This document shows positions 28,671 through 54,896 of a stretch of DNA of 64,000 nucleotides, piece after piece. How positions within the stretch are numbered: position 1 is the first letter of the stretch; the number at the start of each line of letters is the position of its first letter. Both the position numbers and the translations under genes were made by a program. The notes below the pieces were generated by a model. That model was not told the origin of the DNA. It searched no databases and saw only the letters and a list, made by a program, of their open reading frames with translations. Source of the DNA: an uncultured Phycisphaerales bacterium (GTDB lineage Bacteria > Planctomycetota > Phycisphaerae > Tepidisphaerales > Tepidisphaeraceae); assembly GCA_963755915.1 (NCBI GenBank), contig CAVWLP010000003.1, forward strand, positions 288,001 to 352,000, written 5' to 3'.

Positions 28671-28717
28671 CGCCGTGCGGTTCGACACAGCTCACCGAAA
28701 TCAAGCACGGCGGCTAC
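28671..28717 (-). repeat. GTAG-type REP-like hairpin interrupted by a 24-bp insert (28678-28701)
   Basis: Removing 24 nt gives the perfect hairpin CGCCGTGC-AA-GCACGGCG followed by GCTAC. Confidence 0.7.
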
Positions 28718-28792
28718 ACGGGGAGAAGGTGGGGGCGGCCTTAGGCCTGAGCTTCGTGGAGTTCCCGGCGAGGGGAGAGTGCCGAACAATGG

Positions 28793-29461
28793 CTAGGATT
28801 TGATCCCCATCGCCTGAAAGAAACTTTCGGCCAAAATCTCCGACGGTTGGGCAAATATCAATTTCGCCCCGGCATCCCGAAGTTCTTCGGCCTTATGCGT
28901 CGTGGTTACCGCCACCGGCAGCATCCCCGCCGCGACGGCGGCTGCTATTCCTGTGGGGGCATCCTCGATCACGGCGCAATCGCTCGGATCGACAGCCAGG
29001 CGTTTTGCGGCGATCAGAAATACATCGGGCGCGGGCTTGCCGCGGTGAACTTCTGAGCCGTTTACCGTTGCGTCGAAAAACGATCGCAATTTCCCCGCAT
29101 CGAGCACCAGGTTTACATTCTCCGGGGGGGCCGAGGAACCTACGGCGATCCGAATCCCCCGCGCTTTCAGATCCTTCAAAACATCTGCAATGCCCGGCGC
29201 GAGGGGAACATTGGCGCGAATGATGTCGCGAAACGCCGCCTCTTTGGCCTCGGCAATTTCATCCGACTCGGCGGGCGGAATCTGCGGCCCAAAGAGAATC
29301 CGGATGCAATCGCGATTCACCCGCCCGAAACAGGAGAGAAATGTCTCGTACTTCAGCTCGACGCCGCGCGGTTTGGCGGCCGCCAGCCAGCTTTGCCAGT
29401 GGGCGGCTTCGGTGAGGACGATGACGCCATCCATGTCGAAAATCACGGCCTTGGGTGGCAT
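28793..29461 (-). CDS. HAD-family phosphatase (beta-phosphoglucomutase-like)
   Basis: FDMDGV, GKPAPD, IEDA..G motifs; last gene of the ara operon. Confidence 0.88.
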   Translation of the reverse strand: MPPKAVIFDMDGVIVLTEAAHWQSWLAAAKPRGVELKYETFLSCFGRVNRDCIRILFGPQIPPAESDEIAEAKEAAFRDIIRANVPLAPGIADVLKDLKARGIRIAVGSSAPPENVNLVLDAGKLRSFFDATVNGSEVHRGKPAPDVFLIAAKRLAVDPSDCAVIEDAPTGIAAAVAAGMLPVAVTTTHKAEELRDAGAKLIFAQPSEILAESFFQAMGIKS

Positions 29462-29467
29462 CGCGAA

Positions 29468-30175
29468 TTACCGCTTTTCCTGGCCGTAATAGGCTTTGGC
29501 TCCGTGCTTGCGGAGGAAATGTTTATCGAGCAAGTCCTGGGGAATCGGGCTGAGGTTGGGATTCAGGGCCAGGGTGTGAAGGGCCATGTGGGCGGAAAAC
29601 TCCAGGACGATGGCATTTTCGACCGCTTTTTCGGCGGTCGCGCCCCAGGCAAAGGGGGCATGGCTGGCGATGAGTACGCCGGGGACGTTTGCCGGGTCGA
29701 TCTTGCCGCCGCGGAAACGCTCTACGATGGCCTTGCCGGTGTTCAGCTCGTAGTCGCTCTCGATTTCCGCGGGCGTAAGCTGGCGAGTCACCGGGATGGC
29801 GCCATAGAAGTTGTCGGCGTGGGTGGTGCCGAAGCAGGGGATTTCGCGATTTGCCTGGGCGAAACAGGTGCCGTAGAGGGAGTGGGTGTGGGCGACGCCG
29901 CCGAGGGATTCGAACTGCTGGTAAAGGAGCAGATGCGTCGGGGTATCCGACGACGGCTTGGTCGTGCCGTCAACGATCTCGCCGGTGGCGATGGAAAGGA
30001 CGACGATGTCGTTGGGCTGAAGCTTGTCGTACGGGACGCCGCTGGGCTTGATGGCCATCACGCCTTCTTTGCGATCGGCGGCGCTGGCGTTGCCCCAGGT
30101 CAGGGTAACCAGTCCCGCTTCCACCAGCGCGAGGTTGGCGCGAAGGACCCGCTTTTTGAGTTCGTCGTATGGCAT
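29468..30175 (-). CDS. araD: L-ribulose-5-phosphate 4-epimerase
   Basis: TWGNAS, IKPSG, PSSDTPTH, HTHS, GTTHAD, KHGAKAYYGQ. Confidence 0.95.
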   Translation of the reverse strand: MPYDELKKRVLRANLALVEAGLVTLTWGNASAADRKEGVMAIKPSGVPYDKLQPNDIVVLSIATGEIVDGTTKPSSDTPTHLLLYQQFESLGGVAHTHSLYGTCFAQANREIPCFGTTHADNFYGAIPVTRQLTPAEIESDYELNTGKAIVERFRGGKIDPANVPGVLIASHAPFAWGATAEKAVENAIVLEFSAHMALHTLALNPNLSPIPQDLLDKHFLRKHGAKAYYGQEKR

Positions 30176-30185
30176 TGTGACCCGA

Positions 30186-31715
30186 TTATACCTGCCCCAG
30201 CCCCTGAGCGAGATGATAGTACACTTCGTTCGAACGGAGCATCTGCAGGAACAACGGCAACTTGGTTTGGCCGTCGATCCGAACCAGCTCCACCCCGGCA
30301 ATATCCGCGAACGACTGCATATGCTCCATGTTCACGGCATAGCTGTAGGCGGTGTGATGGGCGCCGCCGGCGTAAATCCATGCGGCGCACGCGGTCTTGA
30401 AATCCGGCCGGCATTTCCAAACCGCCCGGGCCACCGGCAGCTTGGGCAACGGATGGGGCGGGACGATGGCGTCGACCTCATTGACGATCAGGCGAAACCG
30501 ATTCCCCAGATCGATCAGCGATGCGTTAATCGCCGCTCCCGCCGGGGCGTCGAACACCAATCGCACCGGGTCGGCCTTGCCGCCGATTCCCAGGGGATGA
30601 ATCTCGAGCGACGGCTTTCCCGCCGCGATCGAGGAGCAGACTTCCAGCATATGCGCACCCAGCACCAGCGGCTGGCTGGGATCGAGATGATAGGTGTAAT
30701 CCTCCATGAACGACGTCCCACCCTCCATCCCGTGCGCCATTGTCTTGAGCGATCGCAGCAACGCACAGGTTTTCCAATCTCCCTCGGCTCCAAATCCATA
30801 CCCGTCGTTCATGAGCCGTTGCACTGCCAGCCCCGGCAACTGCTTCAAGCCATGCAGATCTTCAAACGTCGTGGTGAAGCCTTTAAAATTTCCCTGCTCC
30901 AGAAACGCCCGCAGGCCCAGCTCGATCCTGGCGCCGTCGCGAAGCGATTCGTGGCGGGCGCCGCCGGAGCGCAGCTCGGCTGCTACCGCGTATTGCGATT
31001 CATAGTCTTTGCATAGCGAGGTAATCGCGCCGTCGCCGACTTCATTGACATACCTGACCACGTCTCCCACGCCATAGCCATTGACCGCAAACCCGAAGCG
31101 GTTTTCCGCGGCGACTTTGTCTCCGTCCGTGACGGCGACGAATCGCATATTGTCGCCGATGCGGGCGAATCGAGCGCCCTGCAAATCATTCCACCCCGCG
31201 GCGGCGCACGACCAGGTGGCGATCTGGGTCTGCACGTCGGGATCTGTCCAGTGGCCGACGACGACCTTGCGATTCAGCCGCATTCGCGTGTGCATGAACC
31301 CCGCCTCGCGATCCCCATGCGCGGACTGGTTGAGGTTCATGAAATCCATGTCGATCGTCGCCCACGGCAGATCGCGATTGAACTGTGTATGCAAATGCAG
31401 CATCGGCTTGCGAAGCGCCCTCAGGCCGCCGATCCACATCTTGGAGGGGGAGAAGGTGTGCATCCAAAGGACGACGCCCACGCATTTGGGAGAGGAGCTG
31501 GCCTCGGTGCAAATGGCGCGAATATCCTCCGGCGTCGTCTGGACGCCCCGCTCGACGACGCGGATGGGAATGCGTTTCGAATCGTTCAAACCGCGCACGA
31601 CGCTGCCGGCGTCGGCGGCAACCTGCTTGAGCGTTTCCGGGCCATATAGATGCTGGCTTCCGGTGAGAAACCAGAGTTCGAGTTCCTTAAAGGGGTCTTT
31701 CACAGAGCTGGGCAT
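30186..31715 (-). CDS. araA: L-arabinose isomerase
   Basis: [40 protein letters not shown]. Confidence 0.97.
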
Positions 31716-31735
31716 TGGGACTTCCCGCAAAATCT

Positions 31736-33427
31736 TTATGCGACGCCGCGCACTTTGTCGCGGATCGCCAGCAGTTCTTTCATGACATCCGAGAGATCGG
31801 CCTTTTGGCCGGCGATGCCGAAGGCATCATGCAGCCGCCGATAGAGCCGATAGAGTTTTTCGTAGGTGGCGGCGCGCCTGGGGTCCGGATCAAACGGCTT
31901 TTCGTTGACAGCGGTCATCGCGTCAATGGCTTCCTGGAAATTGTCGTATCCCCCCTGCCCTTTTCCCGCGACAACGCTGGCCGCCACTGCTGATCCGAGG
32001 GCGCAGGTCTGAAGGCTGCGGGACACGCAGATTTGCCGGTTCATGACATCGGCGTAAATCTGCATGGCGAGGGGATTGCGCGCGGAAATTCCGCCGCAAT
32101 TGACGACGCGGCGCACGGGTACACCATATTCCTCCAGGCGTTCCATGATGACCCGCGATCCCATTGCCGTCGATTCGATTAAGGCTCGATAGATTTCGGC
32201 TGGCGAGCTGTGCAGCGTCAGGCCCAAAATCAGTCCGCTTAAGCGCTGATCGACGAGGATCGTCCGATTGCCGTTGAACCAGTCCAAGCAGAGCAATCCG
32301 CTCTCTCCCGGCCGAAGTCCCTCGGCGGCGGCCGTCAGTGCCTGGTGCGATCCTGACTCCTCACCGCCTGGCTGAATTTTGCTGACGAACCAGTTGAAAA
32401 TATCCCCTACCGCTGATTGGCCGGCCTCCAAGCCAAAATAATTCGGCAGAACCGAGTCCGGCACGATGCCGCACAAACCCGGCACATCCGCGATTGCCCG
32501 CGACTTCGGCGCTACCATGATATCACACGTCGAAGTCCCCATGATTTTGACCAATGTTCCGTCGGAAATTCCCGCGCCGATGGCCCCGAGGTGGGCATCG
32601 AACGCCCCGATGGCGACGGGTATCCCCTCCGGAAGGTTGAGTTTTCCGGCCCACTCGGCGCTTAGCTTCCCCGCTGCATGGGCCACATTTTCGCATTTCG
32701 CCGGCAGCGTCTTGCGAACGCGAACCAGCGCCGAATTCAGCATCCCCAGAAAGGCCTCGTCCGGGTATCCGCCCCACTCCGGGTTGTAAAACGCTTTGTG
32801 CCCCGCCGCGCAAACACCGCGGCGAATTTCGTTCGCATCCTTCGCCCCCGTGAGCACTGCCGGAATCCAATCTGCGATTTCAATCCACGTATAAGCCGCC
32901 TCAAAAACCGTCGGCTGGGTTCGCGCGCAGCGTAGGAGCTTCGCCCAGAACCATTCCGATGAATATCGCCCCCCGATCTTGCTCATGAATTTCGGGCGAT
33001 GTTTCAGCCCCAGCGCCGTGATCTCTTCCGCTTCGTCGTGAGCGGTGTGATCTTTCCAGAGCCACGCCATCGCATGGGGATTGCCGGCGAAACCCGGGAG
33101 CATCGCCAGGCTTCGCCCTTGCCGGTCCACCGGCATCGGTGTGCTGCCGGTCGTGTCGACCCCGATCCCAATCACGCTATTGGCGGAAAATTCCCCATCC
33201 GTCGCGGCGTGCTCCAGCGCCTGGGTGATTCCGCGCGAAATCGCCTCGAGGTAATCCGCTGGATTTTGGCGAGCGAGGTCGGCATCGGTATCGTCGAGCA
33301 CGACGCCGGCATCGCCGGTGGGATAATCCGCAACGAACGAGGCCAGTTCCCTGCCGTTGCGGACGTCCACGATCAGCGTCCGCATCGAGTTTGTTCCGAA
33401 GTCCAGTCCTATGACGTATCGGCCCAC
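31736..33427 (-). CDS. araB: Ribulokinase
   Basis: [44 protein letters not shown]. Confidence 0.95.
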
Positions 33428-33602
33428 GGACAGATCCTTTCAGAGTGGCAAAAAGACCGAAATTAGTGCAACGGGATAGGATGTCAAGCCGTTGCACCCC
33501 CATTGTTTAGGGGGGCCTCTATTTTTACGGGCCAAGTTGGTTACCTTCGCTCCCCGACTGCCATATTCACAATGGCGAAGATTTGTTTCCGAGGCTCTGG
33601 CG

Positions 33603-34241
33603 ATGCAAGATGAACCCGTGGCGGTTGCGGATTTGCCAAGCCCGGCTGGCAGCGGAAACGATCAAACCGAGCTCGATGAGCGGCAGTGCCGCCAGTGCAT
33701 TGCCGGCGACAACCGGGCCTGCGGGGAGCTTCTCAAACGGTATGAGGCCCGCATCGCACGCCTGATGTGGCGATTTACCCGCAACCGGACCGAGCACGTC
33801 GAACTGGTGCAGGAAACCATGGTGCAGGTTTACACATCCCTCCCGCGATTCCGCTGGGGGAAAGCTCCGCTTGAGCATTGGGTTATGCGGATCGCCACCC
33901 GAACCGGGTATCAGTTCTGGCGTTCCCAGAAACGCCGGCGAAATTTACAGCCCATCGACGAAATCGATCCGCCCGCCCCTGCCGAAGCCGGCCAGATGGA
34001 CGCGACGGCCGCCGCGGCTGCGCTTCACAACCTGCTTGCGGAACTTCCGCGGGCCGACAGGCTCGTCCTCACCCTCATGTATTTCGAGGAGTGTTCGCTG
34101 CGCGAAATCGCCAAACGGGCCGGATGGAACGAAACCATTGTCAAAATGCGCGTCTATCGCGCCCGGCAACGGCTGAAAAAGATGATTGAAGAGAAGAAGA
34201 TGACGGAATTTCTAATGGGAATAAGCCATGGATCCGCTTGA
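33603..34241 (+). CDS. ECF RNA polymerase sigma factor
   Basis: ELVQE..WVMRIA region 2; SLREIA..VKMRVYRAR region 4. Confidence 0.88.
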   Translation: MQDEPVAVADLPSPAGSGNDQTELDERQCRQCIAGDNRACGELLKRYEARIARLMWRFTRNRTEHVELVQETMVQVYTSLPRFRWGKAPLEHWVMRIATRTGYQFWRSQKRRRNLQPIDEIDPPAPAEAGQMDATAAAAALHNLLAELPRADRLVLTLMYFEECSLREIAKRAGWNETIVKMRVYRARQRLKKMIEEKKMTEFLMGISHGSA

Positions 34242-34494
34242 CGCCATCGAATCTCTGGCCCGGCTGGCCCGCTGCGAGGAGCCGCCGGGGACGAATATCA
34301 ACGTGGCCGCGGTGCTGCGCGCCGCCGCCAATGCGGAGCCACCCCTTCGCCTCGCGCCGCTGGCCTGGTCGGCCGCCGTTTCAGCGCTGGCGGCCGGAAT
34401 CATTCTCAGCTTCGCCATCCACACCCGCCAGACCACCTCCAGCATCGATTCCATCTCGCCCCTTTTCAACGCTACACAGGTGCAGTTGCCATGA
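34228..34494 (+). CDS. Putative single-TM anti-sigma factor
   Basis: Small protein overlapping the sigma gene, one TM. Confidence 0.6.
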   Translation: MDPLDAIESLARLARCEEPPGTNINVAAVLRAAANAEPPLRLAPLAWSAAVSALAAGIILSFAIHTRQTTSSIDSISPLFNATQVQLP

Positions 34495-35111
34495 CCCAAA
34501 GCAACCCTCCCATCGAACAAATTCTCCCACCGAAGCGCGGCCGCTTCCGCGTCTTGAAGGCGTTGGCCCTCTCCGCGGTCATCTTCCTGGCGGGCGGCGC
34601 CGCGGGGTATGGCGTTTCATGGCTCTGGCATCCACCATTCCCCCCCCCGCCGATGGGGCGGTTTGATCCAGACCCTCCGGTGGGAAGCCTGGTTGATCGT
34701 CTGCGCATCGAGCTCTCGCTCAGCGACGATCAGGCGAAGCACGTCCGGCAGATTTACCAGGACTGCCGGGATGGACTGATGAAAATCCGGGAACAGGTTC
34801 GCCCGCAGTTCAAAGCGCAGTTCGATAAGCTCGATGCGCAGATGAAGCAGGCGCTGAATGCGGACCAGTACCAGCAGTGGAGCGAGCGTTTCCGCAATAT
34901 CCGGGACCAGATGCTCCCCCCGCCCCGCGGCGGTCCAGGAGGCCCCGGCGGTCCAGGCCCGTGGGGTGGACCAGGCGGCCCCGGTGGATTCGGCCCGCAC
35001 GGTCCCCCGCCCGGCGAGGGCGGCCAAGGACAAGGAGGACCGCCCGATAATGGGCCGCCCGGCGGACCGCCGGGAGGACCACAGGGCATGCCGCCTCCTG
35101 GCGGTGGATGA
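34491..35111 (+). CDS. Spy/CpxP-like periplasmic protein with Gly/Pro-rich tail
   Basis: TM, LSLSDDQ and LNADQ (LTxxQ-like) motifs, GPGG repeats; ATGA overlap with the upstream gene. Confidence 0.7.
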   Translation: MTQSNPPIEQILPPKRGRFRVLKALALSAVIFLAGGAAGYGVSWLWHPPFPPPPMGRFDPDPPVGSLVDRLRIELSLSDDQAKHVRQIYQDCRDGLMKIREQVRPQFKAQFDKLDAQMKQALNADQYQQWSERFRNIRDQMLPPPRGGPGGPGGPGPWGGPGGPGGFGPHGPPPGEGGQGQGGPPDNGPPGGPPGGPQGMPPPGGG

Positions 35112-35201
35112 GCCGCATCACCTGCGCTGCAATCTATTCGTCAAACCAAAGGAAAACCGTCAGTGCGAAAACGGATCGGAATTCCCCCCTAGGCGTGACG
35201 T

Positions 35202-35360
35202 TTACATCGAGCTGTTCAGCGAGTTCCAGGAGGCCAGCACCTTACCGCCGACCGACCCGATGGTGGCAATCGCCGCCACCACGATCAGCCCTGCGATCAG
35301 GGCGTATTCCAGAACTTCACCGCCCGATTCATCGCGAAGAAAAGAAAAAATGGTTTTCAT
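35202..35360 (-). CDS. Flp-family type IVb pilin (52 aa, not in ORF track)
   Basis: MKTIFSFLRDESG-GEVLEYALIAGLIVVAAIATIGSVGGKVLASWNSLNSSM: Flp G/xxxxEY motif and hydrophobic helix. Confidence 0.85.
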   Translation of the reverse strand: MKTIFSFLRDESGGEVLEYALIAGLIVVAAIATIGSVGGKVLASWNSLNSSM

Positions 35361-35566
35361 AGCCGCTCAATCGACCGCCCCCATCTTAAGCTTGAAATCA
35401 GAAAATTTCCTTGGTTTTGGCTCGTGTCCACGATCGTAATTAGTGCGGTGCCTCATTGTCGCCATTACTGTTTGATCGTAGCAATCTTGGACGCCACGCC
35501 CCGCGTTTTCACCTTTAACATCATTTCATTCCCGAATTTGCGTCATTGAAAGATGGGGAATATACA

Positions 35567-36648
35567 ATGGCTCTAATGATTAGACCCAGCCAACCAACGC
35601 GTTTCCTTGTGATGAATCGACTTGCATGGATGGCAATTTTAATCCTACTTATGAAGATTAAGACGACCTACGCCGCCGGCGCAGACATCGCCGGCTTCCA
35701 CGCCGATTTCATCGTCGCCCCCGACGGCTCGGGCGATTTCAAGACCGTGCAGGAAGCCGTCAGCGCCGTCCCCTCCGATAACTCTGCCCCAAAGATCATC
35801 TTCATCAAACCTGGAACCTATCACGAGAAGCTTCACATCACCTCCCCGATGATCCACCTCCTCGCCCAGGACCCCGAAAAAACCATCCTCACCTTTGACG
35901 ATTTTGCCCGCAAACCAAACGCCGCCGGCAAGAATATGGGAACCTCCGGGTCCGCCAGCGTCACCATCCGCGCCCCCGGGTTCAACGCCGAAAACATCAC
36001 CTTCGAAAACAGCGCCGCGCCGCGCTCCGTGGTAGGGCAGGCCGTCGCCATCCTCATCTATTCCGACCGCGCCGTCTTCCGCAACTGCCGATTTCTGGGA
36101 AACCAGGACACCCTCTACGCCAACGCCGGCCGCGAATATTTCTACCACTGCTTCATCCGCGGCGACGTCGATTTCATCTTCGGCAACGCTGCCGCCGTCT
36201 TCGACCAATGTGAAATCCAGAGCACCGGCCTCGGTTTCCTCACCGCCCAGTCCCGCACCAGCGACAAGCAAACGACCGGCTACGTGCTCACCGATTGCAA
36301 GCTCACCGCCGTCCCGACTGTCCCCGATGGATCGATTTACCTCGGCCGCCCCTGGCGACCCTATTCCCGCGTCGTCTACCTCCACTGCGAATTGGGCACG
36401 CAGATCAACCCCCGCGGCTGGTCGAAATGGAACCCCACCGACACCGACGCCGACATCAAAGCCTATTACGCCGAATACGCCAACACCGGCCCGGGGCAGC
36501 CACCGACAAACGCGTAAGCTGGTCGCACCAGCTTACGGAGGCCGAGGCCCAGCAATTCTCGAAGGAGAATTTCCTCAAAGGGGACGACAACTGGGCGCCG
36601 TGGAAAGATAACGCAGCCGCAACCCAGCCGGCCGCGACTCAGCCCTGA
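35567..36648 (+). CDS. Pectin methylesterase (CE8), frameshift near 36500
   Basis: DGSGDFKTVQEA, QAVA, QDTL, DFIFG, LGRPW; C-terminus RVSWSHQL lies in another frame. Confidence 0.92.
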
Positions 36649-36680
36649 ATGATGTTTTGTGTTTCTGGGCTGCGGGAACG

Positions 36681-36704
36681 CGCCCGCAAGCGGGGCCGCT
36701 AAAC
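36681..36704. repeat. REP-like hairpin between convergent genes
   Basis: CCCGC-AA-GCGGG followed by GCCGCTAAAC; same layout as the 28671 hairpin. Confidence 0.4.
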
Positions 36705-36741
36705 TTGGCGATCGAGGCCTGGTCCGGACATCCGCAACACT

Positions 36742-37341: not shown

Positions 37342-37406
37342 CGATTTTCCTTCCTTCTGGTTGATTGGTTGGACGATAGGCGCAAAGCAATCCAACTTCA
37401 AATACG

Positions 37407-40777: not shown

Positions 40778-40803
40778 CCAACCACCAACTGCGGAGGAAC
40801 TCC

Positions 40804-43956: not shown

Positions 43957-44186
43957 AAGCTCCTCGACGCCACAACCCGTCGTTCCGCGTATCCGGTGAG
44001 AATTTAACCACGCATTTTTAGTAGTTCAAGACTATTGCTTGCAAATCGAAATTAATCGAGCGGCTTTCCAATCCTCGTGCTATAGAAACGACGCTTGCCC
44101 GCGAAGTCATCTGAGCGGGGTGTTTCGGTTCGGCTTAGATTTGAGCCGCTTGCCCAATGCCGGCCGCCTTCCGGCGTTGATCCTTA

Positions 44187-45179: not shown

Positions 45180-45570
45180 GAGCAACTCCTTGAAGTTTCC
45201 GCGGGATGGGGCACGCACCGACTTATGATTTTCGCCAATGGATTTGCACTCCCATAGACGCGATCGATCAATCGACATGAAACCACTCCGAACAACGTGC
45301 CGTCTGTATCGAGATTGCGGATGCGTCCCTTTATGAGACTTTCAGAGGCTCCCGCAGAGACTCATGGGGGGACGGATCGCTCCTCTTCGAAATCCTTCCC
45401 CAGCACGTGATTTCACAGCATAAACATCACTCTGAAAGTTTACAAGCATTTTTTTCTTTCACACAGAAAATAACTCGGTATACTCTCCATCCGTTGACCT
45501 GCGGTGGTTTAATAAGAGCGGGTCGGCAAAGTGTCATTTCACGGCTCAATACATCACATTCGGAGGAGAC

Positions 45571-48500
45571 ATGCAGTCGAGGACAAAGGCAAAGTTAACG
45601 GCAGCAGTAGCGGCTTTCACGGGCAGTATTCTGACCTTCGGCCACTATGCGATGGCACAGAACGACACGTGGGCGGTAGACACCGCAGGCAATGGGTCGG
45701 GGAGTTTTAACACGCCCGGAAACTGGAGCACCGCCGCCGTTCCTACCGGGGCGGCAACGGCGTTCTTCAATGAGAACATCACCTCCACCAGCACGATCAC
45801 GCTGGATGGATCCCAGACATTGGGAACCGTGAACTTCGGAAACACCAACGCGTCGAGCAACGCGGGATGGGTGATCAATACCGGCACGGGCGGCCCGCTG
45901 AATCTCAACAATCCCGGCTACAACATTTTTACCGTGAACCAGGCGACCGGGCAGACGGAAGTCGTCACGATCAATGCCACGCTTGCGAACGGCAACAACG
46001 GTGATAACGAGTTGGCCAAGGGCGGACGCGGAACCCTGGTTCTCACAGGGAACAACAGCGCGCTCTCGGGTACTGTGGCGATCAATGACGGTGTATTGGA
46101 ACTCAACTTCGCTGCGCCGGGAGCACCGGCAACCAACATCCTTGGAGACGACGGGGCGGCCACCCCCGATGCGGGCTCGACACACCTTGAGGATCAAGGG
46201 GGCACTCTGGTTCTCAACGGCGCAAGCGGTGGAACAAACAGCCAGACCTTCAGCAACGGAACGGGCCTGGAATTGGGCGACTCCAGCATCGTGCTAAATC
46301 AGAATGGCGCGGCATCGCTGTCGTTGAATCTGGGCCTCCTGCAGCACAACTGGGCCAGCTCCCTTGATATTCAGCTCCCCACCACGGGAACGGTCTCGCT
46401 CACCCTCGCAGCCACCGGTGGCAACCAGGCTTTTGGCACCACCACCAGCACGGGCGGACTCCTGGTCGACACCGGAGGCATGGCCTTCGCGACCGTTAAC
46501 AACGGCGCCGACTGGGCCGCGGTCGTAACCAACACCATGACCTCCACCAGTAGCATCGTTGCCGGCTCGTCCCTTCCAACTTTCTATACCGCAAGCACCG
46601 CGACGACTCTCTCCGGAAACGCGGATGTGAGTGGAGCCGTGACGCTGCCGGCCAGCACGAACACCACCGTGACCTCCCTTCGGTTCAACGGGGCGGCAAC
46701 CAGCATCGATATCGGCGGAGCCACCAACACGCTGACCACCGCGGGCATTCTCATGACCCCCTCTGCCACCGGAAACGTGACGATTTCCGACGGCAATCTG
46801 GTCACCTCGGCCACCAATGAGCTTTTTATCGATCAGAATAATGCGACCAACACCCTGACGATCAGCGCCAATCTCACCGGTGGCGGCGACATCCTCAAGA
46901 GCGGAGCGGGAACTCTTGTTTTGAGCGGCAACGATACTCAGTCGGGCTGGAACTACCTGAACAGCGGTACGACGGTTCTTGCCGGCGGCGGCACACGCGG
47001 AGTCGAGGCAAGCGCCGGCGACACGTATGTCGGCCAGGCATTCGGCAACACCTCAACGCTCGACATCGTCAACGGAACCTGGAATTCCGGCAGGACGGTC
47101 ATGGCCGGAAATCCGGGCAACTACTCGGGCGGAACCGGTACCATCAACCAGACCGGCGGAACCATCAATTCCAACTATTGGTTCACCGTGGGCGGTTTCG
47201 GCCAAGGCACTTACAACAATAGCGGCGGCGTTTTGAACACGAACCCGCTCGGTTTCGGTGTTTCAGAACTGGAAATCGGGGTCTTCACAACCGGATCCGG
47301 TGTGGTCAACCTCAGCGGCACTGGTCAGATCAACATCGACAACAACGGCACCATCTCTTTCGGCGACGTTAACGGTAACGCCGCCCAAACCGGCGTGTTC
47401 AACCAGAACGGCGGAGCCGTAACTTTTTATAGCGACGGCGGCTCCACGGTTGGCGGAGGCGGTGGCATCAATTTAGGAATAGGCGGCGTTGGCACCTATA
47501 CCTATAACCTCAATGCCGGAACCCTTACCGTACCGACCATCGGCCACAGCACAGGCACGGCGATTTTCAACTTCAACGGTGGAACGCTTCAGGCCGCGGA
47601 GGCCACGGCGGGCTTCATGGGTGGTATCACTCATGCCTATGTGCAGGCAGGCGGCGCCAACATCAATACGAATGGCTATAATGTTACCGTGTCACAGCCG
47701 CTCTCCAGCGGTGTTACGGGCCCGGCAGTGGACGGCGGATTGACCAAGCTTGGCGTGGGCACCCTTGTGCTTTCCGTCGCGTCGACCTATACCGGCGCCA
47801 CGACAATCACGCAGGGTACCGTCCAGCTTCCGGCCGTTGGTATCCCCACGGCAGTCGCCTCATATTCTTTCGATAGCTTTACTCCTAGTTCGAACCCCCT
47901 GCCGCAAAACACTGTTATCCCCAATACCGGTTCGGGCGGTTCGGCCCTGAACGGCATCATCGATAATACTTACTACACGGGCGGCTCGACCAGTGGCGCG
48001 ACCATTGTTTCGCCTGGCCCGACCATTGGTTCCTTGACGACCCATGCCTTGCAATTGGACGGCTCGGGAACCGACGTGCTGATTAACTCTCAGATCGTCG
48101 ACATGAGCAATGCCGCGAGCTGGACGTTCTCGGCGTGGATTCAAACCACGGTCGACGGGTCGGCGTTCCTGAGCAAGGGAACGAACAACGGAAGTTCCTG
48201 GACGACGGGAAACACAGTGTTCTATCTGGGCGCTAATCCGGTCAGCGGGACGCCCGGGCCGTATCCAACCGGCGTCCGTTACGCGGGTGGATTCGTCCAG
48301 GGCACCACGCCTGTTGACGACGGCAACTGGCACATGGTTACCTTCGTCGATGCCGGCGGTACCGAAACCGTCTACGTGGATGGGAATGCCGTGACTTCCT
48401 TGACCTATCCCAACATGGCCGGCTCCGATGCCAGCAACAGCACGCTGATTGGATACGACGAAGACGCGCTGTCGGATCTGGACGGCAACTCGAACTATGC

Positions 48501-49590
48501 CGGCAACCTGGATGAACTGAACTTCTTTAACACGGCTCTATCGGCAACGCAGGTCAATGAGCTGAAGAACACCAACAGCGTGTCAACCGCAGGCGGATCC
48601 CAGCAGATTCTCCCCGCCACGACACCTGTGAATATTACCGCCAGCGGCGCGTCACTTGACCTCAACAGTGAGAACCAATCGATCGGCTCTCTTGCCGGCG
48701 TGGCAGGATCGGCCGTGACCCTTGAAACGGGAACTCTTACCACCGGCGGAAACAACACGTCGACGGCGTTCGCCGGAAGCATTTCGGGCTCGGGAGGTTT
48801 GGTGAAGAACGGCACGGGCACGCAGACCCTCAGCGGTTCCAACAGCTATAGCGGAGGCACAACCGTTAATGCTGGCGAGCTGCTGATTGCGGCCAACGGA
48901 GCACTGCCCGATGGGGCACTCGCCATCACGGGCGGCACGGCTCAGTTGGGCCACCAAACCGGCCTCGCCAGCCTCACCTCGTTGTCGATCAGCGGCGGTA
49001 TCTTCGACATCACGAATAACCACGTGCTGATCACCTACGGCGCCAGCGACCCGGTCGGTTCCATTTACGCCTACCTGAAGAGTGGCTTCAACAACGGCGG
49101 TTGGAACGGTGCAACGGGAATCATCTCCAGCACCGCCCAAACCCTCACCAACGGATTCCGCTATGGCGTCGGCTGGGCGGACGGGGCCGATGGGACGCAT
49201 AACGTCGCCGGCCTGGTTAGCGGTGAGATCGAGCTGAAGTACACCCTCCTTGGCGACGCCAATCTCGACGGCAGCGTCAACGGGAGCGACTTCTCGATCC
49301 TGGCCGCGAACTTCGGGCTGGGCGTCACCAACTGGGACCAGGGCAACTTCCTGTTTAGCAGCTCTGTGAACGGTTCGGACTTCAGCGCGTTGGCCGCGAA
49401 CTTCGGCCAGGGCGACAGCGGCGCGGATACGTCGGTGACACCCGCCGACATCGCTGCTCTCGACGCCTTCGCCGCCGCAAACAATTTGGCGGTTCCGACG
49501 ATCGGCGCCGTTCCGGAACCTGCAACAACGGGAATCCTGCTGATGGCTGCGACCGGCTTGATCGCTCGCCGGCGTCGCAGACAGGAGTAG
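45571..49590 (+). CDS. Large PEP-CTERM surface protein: autotransporter-associated beta repeats, LamG-like domain, dockerin-like module
   Basis: Signal peptide, repeated K.G.GTL.L.G.N.Y.G.T motifs, DGNWHMV/GNLDEL LamG, GDANLDG, VPEP-TM-RRRR. Confidence 0.9.
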   Translation: MQSRTKAKLTAAVAAFTGSILTFGHYAMAQNDTWAVDTAGNGSGSFNTPGNWSTAAVPTGAATAFFNENITSTSTITLDGSQTLGTVNFGNTNASSNAGWVINTGTGGPLNLNNPGYNIFTVNQATGQTEVVTINATLANGNNGDNELAKGGRGTLVLTGNNSALSGTVAINDGVLELNFAAPGAPATNILGDDGAATPDAGSTHLEDQGGTLVLNGASGGTNSQTFSNGTGLELGDSSIVLNQNGAASLSLNLGLLQHNWASSLDIQLPTTGTVSLTLAATGGNQAFGTTTSTGGLLVDTGGMAFATVNNGADWAAVVTNTMTSTSSIVAGSSLPTFYTASTATTLSGNADVSGAVTLPASTNTTVTSLRFNGAATSIDIGGATNTLTTAGILMTPSATGNVTISDGNLVTSATNELFIDQNNATNTLTISANLTGGGDILKSGAGTLVLSGNDTQSGWNYLNSGTTVLAGGGTRGVEASAGDTYVGQAFGNTSTLDIVNGTWNSGRTVMAGNPGNYSGGTGTINQTGGTINSNYWFTVGGFGQGTYNNSGGVLNTNPLGFGVSELEIGVFTTGSGVVNLSGTGQINIDNNGTISFGDVNGNAAQTGVFNQNGGAVTFYSDGGSTVGGGGGINLGIGGVGTYTYNLNAGTLTVPTIGHSTGTAIFNFNGGTLQAAEATAGFMGGITHAYVQAGGANINTNGYNVTVSQPLSSGVTGPAVDGGLTKLGVGTLVLSVASTYTGATTITQGTVQLPAVGIPTAVASYSFDSFTPSSNPLPQNTVIPNTGSGGSALNGIIDNTYYTGGSTSGATIVSPGPTIGSLTTHALQLDGSGTDVLINSQIVDMSNAASWTFSAWIQTTVDGSAFLSKGTNNGSSWTTGNTVFYLGANPVSGTPGPYPTGVRYAGGFVQGTTPVDDGNWHMVTFVDAGGTETVYVDGNAVTSLTYPNMAGSDASNSTLIGYDEDALSDLDGNSNYAGNLDELNFFNTALSATQVNELKNTNSVSTAGGSQQILPATTPVNITASGASLDLNSENQSIGSLAGVAGSAVTLETGTLTTGGNNTSTAFAGSISGSGGLVKNGTGTQTLSGSNSYSGGTTVNAGELLIAANGALPDGALAITGGTAQLGHQTGLASLTSLSISGGIFDITNNHVLITYGASDPVGSIYAYLKSGFNNGGWNGATGIISSTAQTLTNGFRYGVGWADGADGTHNVAGLVSGEIELKYTLLGDANLDGSVNGSDFSILAANFGLGVTNWDQGNFLFSSSVNGSDFSALAANFGQGDSGADTSVTPADIAALDAFAAANNLAVPTIGAVPEPATTGILLMAATGLIARRRRRQE

Positions 49591-49601
49591 GGGAATACGA
49601 A

Positions 49602-49628
49602 AGGGGGCCGGGTAAAACCGGCCCCTCT
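49602..49628 (+). terminator. Probable intrinsic terminator
   Basis: GGGGCCGG..CCGGCCCC stem just after the stop codon; weak U tract. Confidence 0.55.
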
Positions 49629-49769
49629 GTCAAACTTTCTCGGGTTTTCTTTCGCCTGCAGACCAGTCCACGGGACGGGTCTATCAGGCGAAACCGTGGA
49701 ATGTACGCTTATGTAACCAAGGATTAGTTCTTGACTGACGCGCTTTCCGGAGATAATTGCTTCCTTTGG

Positions 49770-50915
49770 ATGGCGACCTCGTCACACCTAAGGAAGATCA
49801 ACCAGCGTAAAATCGTGCATTCGATGCTACGGCTCCAGACCAGCACGTCGCGCACGGCGCTGGCCGAGATGGCTGGAATGAGCCAGGCGACCGTCGGCCG
49901 AATCGTGGACGATTTGATCTCGCAGTCCGTACTTTCCGAGGTCGAAACCGAGGAAGGCCGGCCGCGTTCGGATTCGCGGCAACTTGGCCGCCCCTCGAAA
50001 CTTCTGGAGCTCGACAAGGTTCGGCCCCGTTTCCTGCTGATTCAGCTCGGAGTCCGTCAAACCCGCCTGGCGCTTTCCTCCGTTGCAATTCCCACAACCG
50101 ACCGCTGGTCGATTATGTTCGCAACCCCTCGGATGAAGTCCGACTGGTTTGCGAAGCTGGCCCGCGTCTGCCGGAAGATTTCACTCCGCGGGATCGACGC
50201 CATCATCATGAGCTGCCCGGGGGTGGTCGACGAATCGGAAGGCCGGATTTTGCTCTGCCCCAACATCCACTGGGCCGAGGAAGCCAATTTCGCTTCGGGG
50301 TTGCGGTCGATCGCCCGATTGCCGGTTGTGTTTATCCAGGAGATTCGCGCGCTGGCGCTGGGGCAGTTGGCGGTCGAGCCGGCGCTCAAGGATTTTCTGC
50401 TCGTCGATGTCGGAGACGGCATGGGGGGCGCTTCCATTGTCGGCTCGAAGCTGGAAACAGGGCATCTGCCGCTCAGCGGCGAGCTAGGACACACGCCCGT
50501 GCTGGGCAATACGCGCAAATGCGGGTGCGGGGCCATCGGATGCACCGAGACCCTGATTTCCCGCAAGGGGATTCTCAAGAGTTTCCGCGACAATGCCGAC
50601 ATCCGCACCTGGCCGGCGCTGATGAGCTATGTGCAGGAGGCGGGTTTGCCGGAGTGGTTCAAGGTTTCGCTGGACGCGGTGGCGATCACCGTCGCCGGCG
50701 CCTTGAACGTCGAGGGAATCGCCAACGTGATTTTCACGGGCAATCTTTCTGAATTCCCCCCGGAGGCAACCGACTATCTCTGCCAGAAGGTTCGCGAGCA
50801 CGCGATGTGGAGCCGGCTGGGGGAGGTCGGAGCGCGAATCGCGCCGCGGCACCGCATGGCGGGCATGGTCTGGGCCGGGATCGATCGCGTGCTGTTCGCC
50901 GTCATGTCCTCTTAA
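49770..50915 (+). CDS. ROK-family transcriptional regulator
   Basis: N-terminal HTH (SRTALAEMAGMSQATV, GRP), SGELGH, CGCGAIGCTE. Confidence 0.9.
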   Translation: MATSSHLRKINQRKIVHSMLRLQTSTSRTALAEMAGMSQATVGRIVDDLISQSVLSEVETEEGRPRSDSRQLGRPSKLLELDKVRPRFLLIQLGVRQTRLALSSVAIPTTDRWSIMFATPRMKSDWFAKLARVCRKISLRGIDAIIMSCPGVVDESEGRILLCPNIHWAEEANFASGLRSIARLPVVFIQEIRALALGQLAVEPALKDFLLVDVGDGMGGASIVGSKLETGHLPLSGELGHTPVLGNTRKCGCGAIGCTETLISRKGILKSFRDNADIRTWPALMSYVQEAGLPEWFKVSLDAVAITVAGALNVEGIANVIFTGNLSEFPPEATDYLCQKVREHAMWSRLGEVGARIAPRHRMAGMVWAGIDRVLFAVMSS

Positions 50916-50953
50916 AAAACTCTCTGAATCTCAAAACCGGAAGGAGCGAAGCG

Positions 50954-51917
50954 ATGTTCTCGAAAAAATTGGCCTTTCTTTGTCTTGTCTGCGCAGTCGC
51001 CCTCGGCCTGGGGCCGTGGGCTTCGGCCTGCGCACGCGAAGAAAGTAAAGCTCGCGTTTGTGACCAACAACGCCGCGGATTTCTGGACCATTTGCCGGGC
51101 CGGGTGCATGAAGGCGGCGGAGGAAAACCCCGATATCGACGTCGATTTCCAGATGCTGGGCGACGCCAGCCCGGCAGGACAGAAGCGCGTCGTCGACGAC
51201 CTGCTGGCGCGGGGAATCGACGGCATGGCGATCAGCCCCGTCGATCCCGTCAATGAAACGCCGATGCTCAACGATGCCGCGCAGCAGATCACCGTCTTCT
51301 GCAGCGACAGCGACGCCGCCAATTCGCAGCGTGCCTGCTACATCGGCACGAACAATGTCGATGCGGGCAAACAGGCGGGAGGATTGATCAAGGAAGCGAT
51401 TCCCAGTGGCGGGAAGATCATGCTCTTTGTCGGGAAGCTGGATGCGCAGAATGCCAAGGACCGAATCGCGGGGATTCGCCAGGCGCTGGATGGGTCGAAC
51501 GTGCAGATCCTCGACGTCCGCACGGATGACACGGATGCCGTGCGGGCAAAGGCCAATGCGCAAGACACTCTCGTGAAATATCCGGACATCGCGGCCCTTG
51601 TCGGGCTTTGGAGCTACAACGGGCCGGCGATTCTCGGGGCCGTGCGCGATGCCGGAAAATCGGGGCAGGTGAAGATCGTCTGCTTTGATTCGGATGCCGA
51701 GACGCTTTCCGGGATCAAGAGCGGGGAGATTTATGCGACGGTGGTGCAGCAGCCGTTTGAGTTTGGCAGGCTTTCGATGCTGAACCTCGCCAAGGTAATC
51801 AACGGCGACAATTCCGTGGTTCCGGATACGAAGCAGATTTTTATTCCGACCCTGGCGATCAAGAAGGATAACGTGGATGACTTCGTGGCGCAGCAGAATA
51901 AGCTGCTGGGGAAATGA
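50954..51917 (+). CDS. Sugar ABC substrate-binding protein (frameshift near 51030)
   Basis: AAGGAG RBS and signal peptide; FVTNNAADFW, YIGTNN, TVVQQPFEFG. Confidence 0.88.
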
Positions 51918-51928
51918 GCCGGATTATT

Positions 51929-51956
51929 CACCGGGGAGATCGCGGAGAGCGCGGAG
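51929..51956 (+). repeat. 9-bp-period triplet repeat (CACCGGGGAGATCGCGGAGAGCGCGGAG)
   Basis: Three CGSGGAG units at 9-nt spacing. Confidence 0.5.
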
Positions 51957-52003
51957 ATTTTTCTTGTGAGGCAATTGCGTTTTGGGGGTTTGGACCCTTC
52001 AAT

Positions 52004-52083
52004 ACAAAACTGGACAGTCCGCAACAAAATGGGTGGGATGGGCAAAATAGGTAAGGGGAAATCGGGGTTTTGGTACTTATTTG
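52004..52083 (+). repeat. Dispersed repeat copy C
   Basis: Core ACAGTCCGCAAC at 52014-52025 plus three 9-mers; its tail resembles that of copy B. Confidence 0.75.
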
Positions 52084-52207
52084 ACCACAGATTGTCATGG
52101 GGCGCAAAACCGGCCAATTGAGGGCGCGCCAAAACCGGCCATTTTGAGGCACAGGAGATTGGGTTATCGACCTTGGCTTTCGGCGGTTGCCGCAAGCCAA
52201 TGGTGGG

Positions 52208-54009
52208 ATGGCCAATCAACTCAAGATGGCGGAAGTACAAGCAATTTTGGCACTTGCGCCAGCGGCTGGTCCAATCGGAACATCGCCCGCCAACTCGGCG
52301 TTCACCGGGAGACCGTTGGACGCCACATCCGGTTGTCGGGCGGCGATCCTGCGGCGCCCGGATCGGATTCAAAACCGGCCAGCGCGCCCTCGGCTCGACG
52401 GTGCTCGCCGCAGGCGGCTCGACGGTGCTCGCCGCAGGCGGCTCGACGGTGCTCGCCGCAGGCGGCTCGACGGTGCTCGCCGCAGGCGGCTCGACGGTGC
52501 TCGCCGCAGGCGGCTCGACGGTGCTCGCCGCAGGCGGCTCGACGGTGCTCGCCGCAGGCGGCTCGACGGTGCTCGCCGCAGGCGGCTCGGAGAGCGCGCC
52601 ACCGGGTTATCCGGCGCGCCCATCGGGTCGGTCAGTACGGCATCGCCCTGGCGTGAGGTCATTGTTCAGAAGTTGGAAGCCGGGCTGACGGCCCAGCGGA
52701 TTTATCAAGACATCTCCAGCGATCACGGCTATGCCGGCAGCTATTACAGCGTGCGCCGGTTCATCAAGAAGCTCTCGGCTGCCGCGCCGGCGCCCTTTCG
52801 CCGGATGGAATGCGAGCCGGGAGCCGAGGCGCAGGTGGACTTCGGCCGGGGTGCGCCCTGGTCGGTCCTGACGGCAAACGCAAAGCAACCTGGGTCTTCC
52901 GCATTGTGCTGAGCCACAGCCGCAAGGGGTACGCCGAGGCGGTGGAGCGGCAGACGACCGATGATTTTCTGCGTTGTCTGGAAAATGCCTTTACGCACTT
53001 CGGCGGGATGCCGTCAGCGCTGGTGATCGACAATCTTCGCGCGGCGGTGACGCGGGCGGACTGGTTCGAGGCGGAGTTGTGTCCCAAGGTCCGGTCGTTC
53101 GCCGAACATTATGGAATCGCCATTCTGCCCACCAAGCCGTACACGCCGCGGCACAAGGGGAAGATCGAGCGGGGCATCGGCTATGTGAAGAGCAATGCTC
53201 TCAAAGGCCGGCAATTCGCCTCGCTCTCGGATCAGAACGCGCATCTGCTGACGTGGGAGAAGAGCGTGGCCGACACGCGCATCCACGGCACGACGCGGCG
53301 GCAGGTGAAGGAAGTCTTCGAGCAGGTAGAGAAGCCGGCACTGTTGGCTCTGCCGCCGGTGCGATTCGATCTTTTCACCGAGGCGTTGCGCAGTGTTCAC
53401 CGCGACGGGCACGTGGAGATCAAGGGGGCGTACTATTCGGTCCCGCCGGAGTTTTTGGGCCAGCGGGTCTGGGCGCGGTGGGACGGGCGCACGGTCCGGC
53501 TGTTCGATCAGAAGATGCGTGCGATCGCTCTGCACGCGCAGCGTCCGCCGGGCAGGTTCTCGACGCAAGACGCCCATATCCTGCCGGAGAAGATCAGCGG
53601 CATCGAGCGTGGAACGACCTGGCTTCTCCAGCGGATCGAATGCATCGGGCCGCACGCCACGCAGTGGGCGCAGTCAATGCTTCAGCATCGCGGCATCGAA
53701 GGCGTGCGCGTGTTGATGGGGCTGCTGTCGCTGGCCAATCAGCAGCCGCGACCGGCCGTGGAACGAGCCTGCGAGATTGCTCTGGGGCATGGCGCGTATC
53801 ACCTGCGCTCCCTGCGGCAGCTCATCGAACACCAAAACGGCGCGCCGGTTCAACAACACTTCGAGTTTGTTCAGGAACATCCAATCATCCGCGGACTGGC
53901 CGATTACGGACAGTTCGTACGCGACGCAATCACCCAAGCGGAGGCTTTGCCTGCCGCACAACCTTTACAGGCCTGCCCTGAGCAGAGCCGAAGGGAGTCC
54001 ACCCCATGA
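52208..54009 (+). CDS. istA: IS21 transposase IstA (several frameshifts between 52255 and 52860)
   Basis: MANQLKMA, SNRNIARQLGVHRETV HTH, EAQVDFG, IDNLRA, KGKIER. Confidence 0.9.
52391..52582 (+). repeat. Perfect tandem array, 8 x 24 bp (CGGCTCGACGGTGCTCGCCGCAGG), inside istA
   Basis: Eight identical units counted, followed by a partial CGGCTCG. Confidence 0.97.
53972..53995 (-). repeat. 24-bp micro-element (CCCTTCGGCTCTGCTCAGGGCAGG)
   Basis: Same core and tail as the tandem unit, with a CCCT/AGGG stem. Confidence 0.75.
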
Positions 54010-54896
54010 GACCTTCGTTGATGCAGACGCTCAAGCAACTTCGGCTTTCAGGTCTGGCGAGCAGCCTTGAAGTTCGCCTGAGCGAGGCGGCCGGCAATCG
54101 GCTCGACCACAGTGAGTTTTTGGAACTGATCCTTCAGGATGAACTGAACGTCCGATCCAGCCGGCAGATCGGCCGGCGCGTCAAGGCGGCGATGTTCCGC
54201 GACACCAAAAACCTCGACGAGTTCGACTTCTCCTTCAACACCTCCATCAAACGCAAACAGATTCACGATCTGGCCGCCGGCCAGTTCATTCGTGACAAAC
54301 GTGACGTGCTCTTGCTGGGTCCGCCCGGCGTGGGCAAATCGTTTTTGGCCCAGGCCATCGGACACCAGGCGATCAAGAGCGGCTTGGTGGTCCTGTACCG
54401 ATCCATCTTCGACCTGGCCCGCGACTTTTTAGGCGACGAGGATCTGGGAGCCCAGGACAAGACGCTGGCCCGGTATCTCAAGCCTGATCTGCTTATCATC
54501 GACGACATGGGAATGAAGCAGCTTCCGCGGCGCAGCGGCGAATGCCTGCTGGAGATCGTCATGCGCCGGCACGAGAACCGCTCGACGATGATGACCAGCA
54601 ACCGTCCACTGGAGGACTGGGCCAAGCTGATCGGCGACGTGCCGGCGGCCACGGCCATTCTGGATCGGTTCCTGCAGCACGCCACGATCATCAACATCAC
54701 CGGCAAGAGCTACCGCCTTCGGCATGGGGGCCATTCGACTTCGCTCACGGCAGGCCAATCCGGGACACCGGAAAAGACAAATCCAAAAGGACGGCGGAGT
54801 ACCGCCGGCGATGAAGGGTGCTCCCCCCCGGAAGACACCGTGACAGAGCCGCCGTTGTCTTCTGATGTGGGGGTATCCGCCGGCCAGACGGCGTGA
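54006..54896 (+). CDS. istB: IS21 helper ATPase IstB
   Basis: FDFSFN, GPPGVGKS, LIIDD, TSNRP, AILDR, GKSYR. Confidence 0.95.
   Translation: MRPSLMQTLKQLRLSGLASSLEVRLSEAAGNRLDHSEFLELILQDELNVRSSRQIGRRVKAAMFRDTKNLDEFDFSFNTSIKRKQIHDLAAGQFIRDKRDVLLLGPPGVGKSFLAQAIGHQAIKSGLVVLYRSIFDLARDFLGDEDLGAQDKTLARYLKPDLLIIDDMGMKQLPRRSGECLLEIVMRRHENRSTMMTSNRPLEDWAKLIGDVPAATAILDRFLQHATIINITGKSYRLRHGGHSTSLTAGQSGTPEKTNPKGRRSTAGDEGCSPPEDTVTEPPLSSDVGVSAGQTA
54731..54754 (+). repeat. 24-bp micro-element (CCATTCGACTTCGCTCACGGCAGG) in the istB tail
   Basis: Same core and tail; GGCCA recurs at 24-nt spacing across the junctions. Confidence 0.75.

Follow-up and report, generated by a model that had tools for sequence, protein, structure and literature searches.

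A window of 64,000 nt from the genome of an uncultured Phycisphaerales bacterium (contig CAVWLP010000003.1, positions 288,001 to 352,000) probably contains, in two related forms, a very small nonautonomous mobile DNA element that resembles the repetitive extragenic palindromic sequences (REPs). The first form, a 24-nt hairpin unit typified by the copy at position 28678, has been copied to many sites, always beside a C (a G on the other strand) and with no target duplication. Most of its copies interrupt members of other short repeat families, in the loop or the repeat itself, and the same sites can also be found precisely without it. The second form, with a CAGG tail, would have inserted into IstA in an ancestor of an IS21 lineage, both in the disordered linker between HTH1 and HTH2 and in the C-terminal tail, where it could be tolerated as an 8-residue insert because 24 is a multiple of 3; in a burst of this insertion sequence (IS) to 31 copies, the linker unit would have expanded and contracted by slippage to give a variable-number tandem repeat (VNTR) of 0 to 12 units. 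Window coordinates are used throughout; the genome holding the window (6.63 Mb in three contigs; marker completeness, 81%; GC content, 59%) is referred to as G000, and its sister species as G001.

Four loci in the window

An initial annotation of this DNA had described four loci as copies of one element at separate sites, and all four motifs are present at the following coordinates, including the single stem mismatch in the 54731 copy:

28678..28701, plus strand: family-B unit CGGTTCGACACAGCTCACCGAAAT (CGGT-TCGAC-ACA-GCTC-ACCG-AAAT), read from the sequence
52391..52589, plus strand: tandem array of eight perfect 24-nt units CGGCTCGACGGTGCTCGCCGCAGG (52391-52582) plus 7 nt, identified by TRF
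53972..53995, minus strand: CAGG-tailed unit CCCTTCGGCTCTGCTCAGGGCAGG (CCCT-TCGGC-TCT-GCTC-AGGG-CAGG), read from the sequence
54731..54754, plus strand: possible diverged CAGG-tailed unit CCATTCGACTTCGCTCACGGCAGG (CCAT-TCGAC-TTC-GCTC-ACGG-CAGG), with one stem mismatch, read from the sequence

TRF gives the array a period of 24, 8.3 copies, and 100% matches. Rather than one element at four sites, the loci make up two subfamilies, with one genomic AAGT/AAAT-tailed copy and three CAGG-tailed loci borne by an IS21-family element; because these three are carried as fixed parts of one IS, they do not represent separate events in G000. The core TCGRC-N3-GCTC has 14 matches in the window at seven independent loci, compared to 2.5 +/- 1.6 (maximum, 7) in shuffled sequences, and none of 100 shuffles reaches 14; the excess within the window alone is borderline. 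Genome-wide there are 560 core matches, 267 of them with a perfect 4-bp stem, and at this scale the signal is decisive.

A dispersed family with a co-varying stem

Family B has the consensus CGGY-TCGAC-N3-GCTC-RCCG-AAGT, and the 28678 copy is a member with an AAAT tail. A stem-agnostic definition yields 71 copies in G000, of which 61 have a perfect stem; when the stem partners are shuffled (2000 times), the average is 25.6 and the count never exceeds 38. Four stem types are found among the perfect-stem copies (CGGT/ACCG, 32; CGGC/GCCG, 23; CGAC/GTCG, 5; CGTC/GACG, 1), in agreement with the earlier proposal of a co-varying 4-bp stem, and the 4-nt tail is AAGT (ACTT on the other strand) in 66 of the 71 copies.

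G000 has 51 matches to the exact family-B pattern, which is also found in 10 of 12 other congeners (0 to 67 copies each) and in none of eight genomes from other families of the class. Across the order it is present in 49 of 141 genomes and 30 of 76 genera, and a reversed-pattern control gives zero in each of the 141. Searches of Rfam 15 with the window gave no match at gathering score, and the sole match between 28400 and 29000 at E values up to 10 is noise (E = 8.3).

Identity at 24 of 24 positions across many genera of one family could alternatively reflect a host-selected cis-element, such as an mRNA 3'-end stabilizer, a terminator, or a nucleoid-protein site, whose mobility is incidental. 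Such a role would also suit the depletion of family-B loci from long open frames, with 34 of 66 lying within a stop-free stretch of at least 200 amino acids (aa) compared to 86.8% of the genome (stop-free cover, used here without gene calls, is a blunt proxy for coding at 59% GC), and the position of one copy in genome G011 directly after the infA stop codon. Nonetheless, we consider this explanation rather improbable, as copy number among congeners ranges from 0 to 67, the units nest in other repeats and in transposase genes, no Rfam family matches, and a copying mechanism is needed in any case.

Units as exact insertions

That the unit is an inserted module with exact boundaries, as had been proposed, is the common outcome of tests of excision length, junction words, and orthologous gaps. 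When the 25-nt flanks on the two sides of a unit are joined, an ungapped empty paralog is found for 54 of the 71 units (blastn-short, G000), and excision of 21, 22, 23, 25, 26, or 27 nt in place of 24 nt works for only 8, 1, 3, 4, 1, and 0, respectively. The blastn-short offset control is insensitive to shifts of 1 to 3 nt, and boundaries were therefore taken from exact 20-mer junction words, which match for 30 of 71 units at offset 0 and for 31 at offset +1, with the remaining offsets from -5 to +5 giving 0 to 3. The element is CGGY...AAGT or GGY...AAGTC, with ends fixed to within 1 nt, and target duplication is absent, because junction words match empty sites at offset 0 or +1 alone. The right flank always begins with C, mostly CC or CCG, so that the earlier observation that each unit precedes a C is true of the genomic copies as well as of the window loci. 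AAGT-type units have 1 nt in common with this flank, and in CAGG-type units the next sequence is always CGGCTCG, the first 7 to 8 nt of the unit itself.

Comparison of orthologous loci in G001 and G000 is the test least affected by paralogy. Two such loci (L113 and L114) show a clean 24-nt gap between flanks that are 91 to 93% identical, with the host repeat conserved, and two further loci are filled in both genomes. Sites at C3:~727.5k and ~584.8k are empty in G000 and filled in G001. The differences between filled and empty sites are exactly one 24-nt singlet. Head-to-head pairs of units number just two among the 71 copies of G000, and several, 43 to 46 bp apart, are present in genome G006.

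Given the systematic errors at GCGC motifs in this assembly (described below) and its marker completeness of 81%, an assembly or sequencing artifact might be suspected, but for the unit itself this is refuted. Short-read contigs from run X1 match positions 28335-28698 and 28694-29100 with 0 differences, and because they match the window across both unit boundaries, the 28678 unit is not a long-read artifact; moreover, the unit is present in 49 genomes from many assemblies.

Host repeats and the 28678 site

The preference for other repeats or hairpin DNA that had been suggested is also apparent, with family-B units nesting in at least seven other short repeat families. In the following, a slash marks the position of the unit:

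Host h1, CCCACGG-CGGCG/CCGTGGG: 15 filled and 35 empty, with both CGGC and CGGT stems
Host CCGGTGAGGACA/CCGGCGG: 7 filled and 22 empty
Host h3, GCGCCNNG/CAAG-CNNGGCGGCTACACGGGG: 52 anchors (16 filled, 34 empty, 2 other), with five unit types by stem and loop
Host (CCGATTG)n
Host TTAGCCGCGA/CCCGCAG
Host CTCTGCG/CCTCTGCG
Host TTGCCA/CAGAT
28670..28712, plus strand: host hairpin of class h3, GCGCCGTG...CAAG CACGGCG, identified by h3 anchors and its fold

The presence of different unit variants at one host position fits repeated insertion better than a single event. The 28678 unit sits between the 5' stem of its host hairpin and the CAAG loop, and the host hairpin (28670-28712) has the sole fold that is better than shuffles (-11.8 kcal/mol, z = -2.9). 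The joined 25-nt flanks of the unit find 10 ungapped empty matches, the best at 100%, and near-identical paralogs with the same 80-nt flank lack the unit and read ...GGGAAAGCGCCGTG-CAAGCACGGCGGCTACACGGGG. It had been predicted that excision at this site would restore the hairpin GCGCCGTG-CAAG-CACGGCG, which is exactly what the paralogs carry.

The host hairpin is near the 3' end of an intergenic dispersed repeat of ~280 bp (about 28469-28765). This repeat is matched at least 30 times in G000 and 35 times in G001, and it is not aligned in the orthologous intergenic region of G001. At some orthologous loci, entire host repeats are present in G001 and missing from G000.

CAGG-tailed units in an IS21-family element

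The three CAGG-tailed loci lie within an insertion sequence with the following features, where ORF denotes an open reading frame:

52093..55018, plus strand: IS21-family insertion sequence with istA and istB and terminal inverted repeats TGTCATGGGGCGC.../...GCGCCCCGTGACA (blastn, Pfam)
52187..54009, plus strand: istA, with the frame interrupted at several sites in or beside GCGC motifs (ORF table)
53938..53958, plus strand: family C hairpin GCGGAGGCTTTGCCTGCCGC plus A, a 21-nt in-frame insert in the IstA tail
54006..54896, plus strand: istB, an intact 296-aa ORF (ORF table, Pfam)

Its assignment to the IS21 family follows from the presence of both IstA and IstB and of multiple terminal repeats, with the 12-mer CAAAACCGGCCA occurring twice at each end; Pfam identifies rve and Mu-transpos_C_2 in IstA and IstB_IS21 (223 bits) in IstB. 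There are 31 copies in G000 at 98% identity or above (blastn), all 31 with paired ends, and relatives are found in Phycisphaerales- and Tepidisphaerales-type planctomycete metagenome-assembled genomes. The IstA structure that has been solved shows a less ordered HTH-1/HTH-2 connector, which is a linker in the minor groove, and flexibility in the last ~45 residues (PMC10122671). In the majority consensus of the IS copies, HTH-1, the unit, and HTH-2 are in one frame, and the unit is read as GSTVLAAG in the IstA linker.

The linker array and the pre-istB unit on the minus strand are both present in every full IS copy, and all 172 CAGG+CGGCTCG units of G000 lie in IS copies. The number of array units per copy varies from 0 (one copy), 1 (two copies), 3 (one), 4 (six), and 5 (eight) to 6 (three), 7 (one), 8 (seven), 10 (one), and 12 (one). 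The array at 52391 is a VNTR of 0 to 12 units that reflects tandem expansion among the 31 copies, and not eight insertions. Three forward frames and one reverse frame are open across 52391-52589, and ORF tables list four overlapping repeat "proteins" there.

The IstA linker is from 69 to 345 nt long in this clade, and its content differs among relatives. Four of them (L009, L010, L013, and L043) have no unit at the linker site, which reads CCCTCGGCTCG/GAGGGC; L012 has two diverged units, L024 and the in-genome paralog PAR have one each (degenerate in PAR), and L011 has one unit with another small hairpin nested in its loop. In L045, a different IS21 element, the same Gly-Ser codons are occupied in frame by an exact 24-mer of family B, and the nearest relative of L045 has none. 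The unit at 53972-53995 keeps the frame of the C-terminal tail of IstA and immediately precedes the ribosome-binding site of istB; at this position the same four relatives have a clean 24-nt gap (...CACAGGAGTCC...). These L009-type sequences without the unit read ...CACAGGAGTCCATTCCATG, which contains AGGAG, as expected if excision before istB restores this motif. L012, which is from another genome, carries the same pre-istB unit as the window, and PAR has a different 24-nt hairpin at that spot. The linker and pre-istB units are thus common to L012 and the window, and the IS-borne copies were inherited with the IS and are not separate insertions made in this genome.

The clean 24-nt gaps predicted for homologs are therefore seen at the linker and pre-istB sites, but no relative has one at 54731. 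In the C-terminal tail of IstB this copy encodes HSTSLTAG, and it resembles the array unit and uses its frame; compared to L012, the region has 39 additional nt, and other relatives carry different hairpins there. By sequence comparison, its status as an inserted unit is unproven, and the proposed addition of 8-residue peptides to linkers and tails stands for the IstA linker and IstA tail, and not for the IstB tail, where the copy is not shown to be an insert. Elsewhere, the CAGG+CGGCTCG form occurs once in each of 4 of 140 other genomes of the order, two of these occurrences being in IS21 linkers. In G008, a CAGG-type unit is in frame (GSTALAAG) in the tail of a dockerin-like protein, and in G006, about six diverged CAGG-type units lie in a PilZ protein, with the opposite strand encoding PAASTAEP-type repeats. 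The broader claim that such units write 8-residue inserts into proteins thus extends to two non-IS proteins of other genomes.

It could be argued that the IS loci are simply ordinary coding sequence in a repeat-prone linker and tail, and that their likeness to the dispersed family is coincidental, in which case the window would contain a single REP copy and a minisatellite unrelated to it. The IstA linkers, variable in length over the range given above, are indeed rich in other repeats, the array is a plain VNTR, and the 54731 site has no clean gap. However, the array unit matches the family-B consensus at 17 of its 20 hairpin bases, L045 has the exact 24/24 family-B unit at the same codons, L024 (whose IstB is 65% identical) retains 29 of 31 bases of the unit plus junction in an otherwise unrelated linker, and the gap before istB is a clean 24 nt. 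We therefore disfavor coincidence and regard it as very improbable.

The family C insert at 53938-53958 is missing from the L009-type relatives and present in L011. Genome-wide, family C has 55 matches, compared to 0 in the reversed control, and nearly all are within multicopy elements. Family-C-related hairpins are also found in the IstB tail of L009, in the L011 linker (inside the 24-nt unit), and, inverted, before istB in PAR.

How the units may move

We propose tentatively that the units are moved by a trans-acting HUH/Y1-type nuclease or transposase that recognizes hairpins in single-stranded DNA (ssDNA). Such an enzyme would act on the strand with ACTT and the hairpin, insert it 3' of a G, and be able to excise it precisely; the active strand would be the complement, 5'-(G)/ACTT-hairpin-3', because the conserved flank lies 3' of the CGGY strand. 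This order, with a tetranucleotide ahead of the stem-loop, is also that of REPs. A more far-reaching proposal, in which we have somewhat less confidence, is that the lone 24-nt hairpin is a complete transposable unit, inserted and precisely excised as ssDNA by a conserved host-encoded enzyme other than a flanking REP-associated tyrosine transposase (RAYT), and that, being 8 codons long, it seeds peptide repeats. It would then be possibly the smallest such unit in bacteria, targeting the loops of other selfish repeats and seeding (GSTVLAAG)n in the IS21 transposase, the PAASTAEP-type PilZ repeats, and the tail of the dockerin protein.

No mobilizing enzyme had been seen in the window, and none is evident from searches of Y1 gene neighborhoods, co-distribution, and bracketing by units. 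G000 has two Y1_Tnp (PF01797) genes, at C3:576227-576835 (locus L008) and C3:1125007-1125798. Between neighboring units on contigs C1 and C2 of G000 and in G011, translations judged by eye include no nuclease; the genes there are sigma-factor-like, catalase-like, HAD-like, and infA.

Several observations weigh against movement of the unit as a mobile element, and particularly against the involvement of a Y1-type enzyme. There is no core motif within 1.5 kb of either Y1_Tnp gene of G000, and Y1_Tnp homologs do not track unit counts across 13 genomes (59 to 93% complete): G011 has 14 units and no Y1 match, and G003 and G008 have matches and 0 units. No inverted pair of units brackets a gene in the inter-unit regions of G000 C1 and C2 and of G011, and the units show only a weak strand preference with respect to GC skew (15+/12- and 7+/17- in the two halves of contig C2). 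Nearest-neighbor folding of all four window units on both strands gives 4-bp hairpins no stabler than shuffles, and the evidence for structure therefore rests on covariation; the covariation and the filled/empty counts themselves inflate the number of independent events, as copies share descent. The short-read contigs at 28678 show no 24-nt skip, but they break inside the repeat, cannot show rare variants, and are neutral as to excision. Lastly, an istB nucleotide tree (FastTree, midpoint root, 19 chosen loci out of 82) nests the unit-less L009 group inside unit-bearing lineages, and at least some of the empty IS sites would be explained more simply by precise loss than as the ancestral state.

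The main rival to enzymatic movement is an enzyme-free process, in which template switching or slippage between hairpin-forming repeats copies the unit as a microhomology-templated insertion and hairpin-mediated slippage removes it. This has some appeal, in that CAGG-type units always precede their own first 7 to 8 nt (CGGCTCG), the array expands and contracts in tandem, the target sites are hairpins or tandem repeats, and the enzyme searches are negative. It accounts less well for AAGT-type units, which match the flank by 1 nt alone, for the use of the same boundaries at unrelated sites, and for an identical 24-mer across 30 genera, where recognition by a protein fits better than random template switches, and overall we think it unlikely.

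Near the Y1_Tnp gene at L008 there is a long palindrome (TTGTTTAGCCGCGACCCGCAGGG...CGGGTCGCGGCTAAACAA; host class h5) located 44 nt upstream, and a second copy of the h5 core AGCCGCGACCCGCAG lies inside the 3' end of the gene. The h5 palindrome family has ~20 or more copies genome-wide, and the arrangement at L008 is REPtron-like.

Relation to known repeats

REPs are 20 to 40 bp long with GTAG or CGTC tags, can interrupt other palindromes (as GTAG-23 of T. roseum does), are found in frame in ORFs (as with RPE-4, RPE-6, and those of O. terrae), and in clusters encode 43 to 82 residues (PMC3733652). The unit is similar in being a 24-nt stem-loop with a conserved unpaired tetranucleotide and in being dispersed in dozens of copies, more in some relatives than in others, and both its nesting in palindromes and its in-frame insertion in ORFs have precedents among REPs (PMC3733652). 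It differs in its tag, which is ACTT or CCTG (AAGT or CAGG on the other strand) and not GTAG or CGTC, in having a perfect stem of just 4 bp and an invariant interior of 12 nt, and in that no Y1 or RAYT gene is flanked by the unit in G000. REPINs are inverted doublets of ~100 bp that are duplicated by a flanking single-copy RAYT (bioRxiv 10.1101/2021.07.10.451892), whereas what moves here is apparently a singlet bounded at exactly 24 nt.

Like a coding minisatellite or VNTR, the 52391 array repeats a perfect unit head to tail without loss of frame, in numbers from 0 to 12 among near-identical IS copies, but its unit belongs to a dispersed hairpin family. Most Rickettsia palindromic elements are ~100 to 150 bp long, and they are restricted to Rickettsia and have no sequence likeness to the unit, which spans 8 codons and is tandem-expandable. 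Miniature inverted-repeat transposable elements (MITEs; for example, Correia/NEMIS, RUP, and Nezha) are, like the unit, nonautonomous, multicopy, and able to lie in or near genes, but they make target-site duplications, in contrast to the junctions of the unit, which show no target duplication and at most 1 nt of ambiguity. MITEs are also 70 to 300 bp long with terminal inverted repeats of 15 to 30 bp (PMC3733652), whereas the only inverted repeat of the unit is its 4-bp stem. One likeness to the Rickettsia elements is that those, too, are in-frame palindromic repeats in genes that stay functional (PMC3733652). The Y1 TnpA of IS200/IS605 elements combines hairpin recognition, no target duplication, a short fixed insertion site, and precise excision (PMC6006769). 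Here, the likeness is one of mechanism by analogy and not of membership: those elements encode the enzyme and carry one hairpin at the left end and another at the right end, compared to a single 20-nt hairpin with a 4-nt tail, and for the unit the target is no more than C/CC and the replication-strand bias is weak.

The unit is not described in the passages available to us on REPs and in the Planctomycetes literature, and a text search for the 12-nt core string found no paper; the supplementary REP consensus tables of PMC3733652 might include a related family. Its kind has precedent in REPs (PMC3733652). We regard the element as REP-like, with a new tag, apparent mobility as a singlet, no flanking RAYT found in G000, and a VNTR inside a transposase.

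If 24-nt singlet hairpins do move alone, then the lower size limit of bacterial mobile DNA falls, and some REP-like repeats would fall outside the REP/RAYT picture, in which a flanking transposase moves doublets. With clean filled and empty sites at orthologous loci, this can be tested directly in a little-studied phylum. Selfish DNA could in this manner introduce short peptide repeats into protein segments that tolerate them, such as the DNA-binding linker of a transposase, and later amplify them there, and the linker inserts could perhaps tune IS activity. In addition, the array of 0 to 12 units marks individual IS copies.

Other features of the IS copies

Among 28 aligned IS copies, 26 of 29 small variable sites touch GCGC, compared to 9.1% of positions expected. 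Examples of such sites are near 52250, 52600, and 52870. Many of the differences are 1-nt indels that break istA, and the interruptions of istA are probably assembly errors. The GCGC-linked differences suggest a methylated motif at which long-read basecalling errs systematically, and they call for caution in the annotation of this genome.

One IS copy (G000 C2:1543480) is 5606 bp long, compared to about 2.9 kb for others, reflecting an insertion of about 2.7 kb. Two further loci (G000 C2:1970690 and C2:2638471) are 1.37-kb internal-deletion derivatives without nearly all of istA. Both deletions start just after one linker unit and end in the middle of the pre-istB unit, and in one of the derivatives a 405-aa open frame fuses the IstA N terminus to IstB.

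The terminal-repeat 12-mer also occurs internally:

52370..52381, plus strand: internal copy of the 12-mer CAAAACCGGCCA in the istA linker, 9 nt upstream of the array

At the ends of the window element, the 12-mer (CAAAACC[G/A/C]GCCA) is located at 52105, at 52130, and near 54978-55003. It recurs one to three times in the istA linker of this IS21 clade and two or three times in the IstB tail of some relatives. Its variable base co-varies between end and internal copies in 17 of 19 loci, and the other two lacked an end or an internal copy. The internal 12-mers are possibly candidate transposase-binding sites.

Beside the right end of the IS, an ORF at 54976-55611 terminates with VPEPSTGVLGGMALGALLLLKGRRA, which we take to resemble a PEP-CTERM sorting signal.

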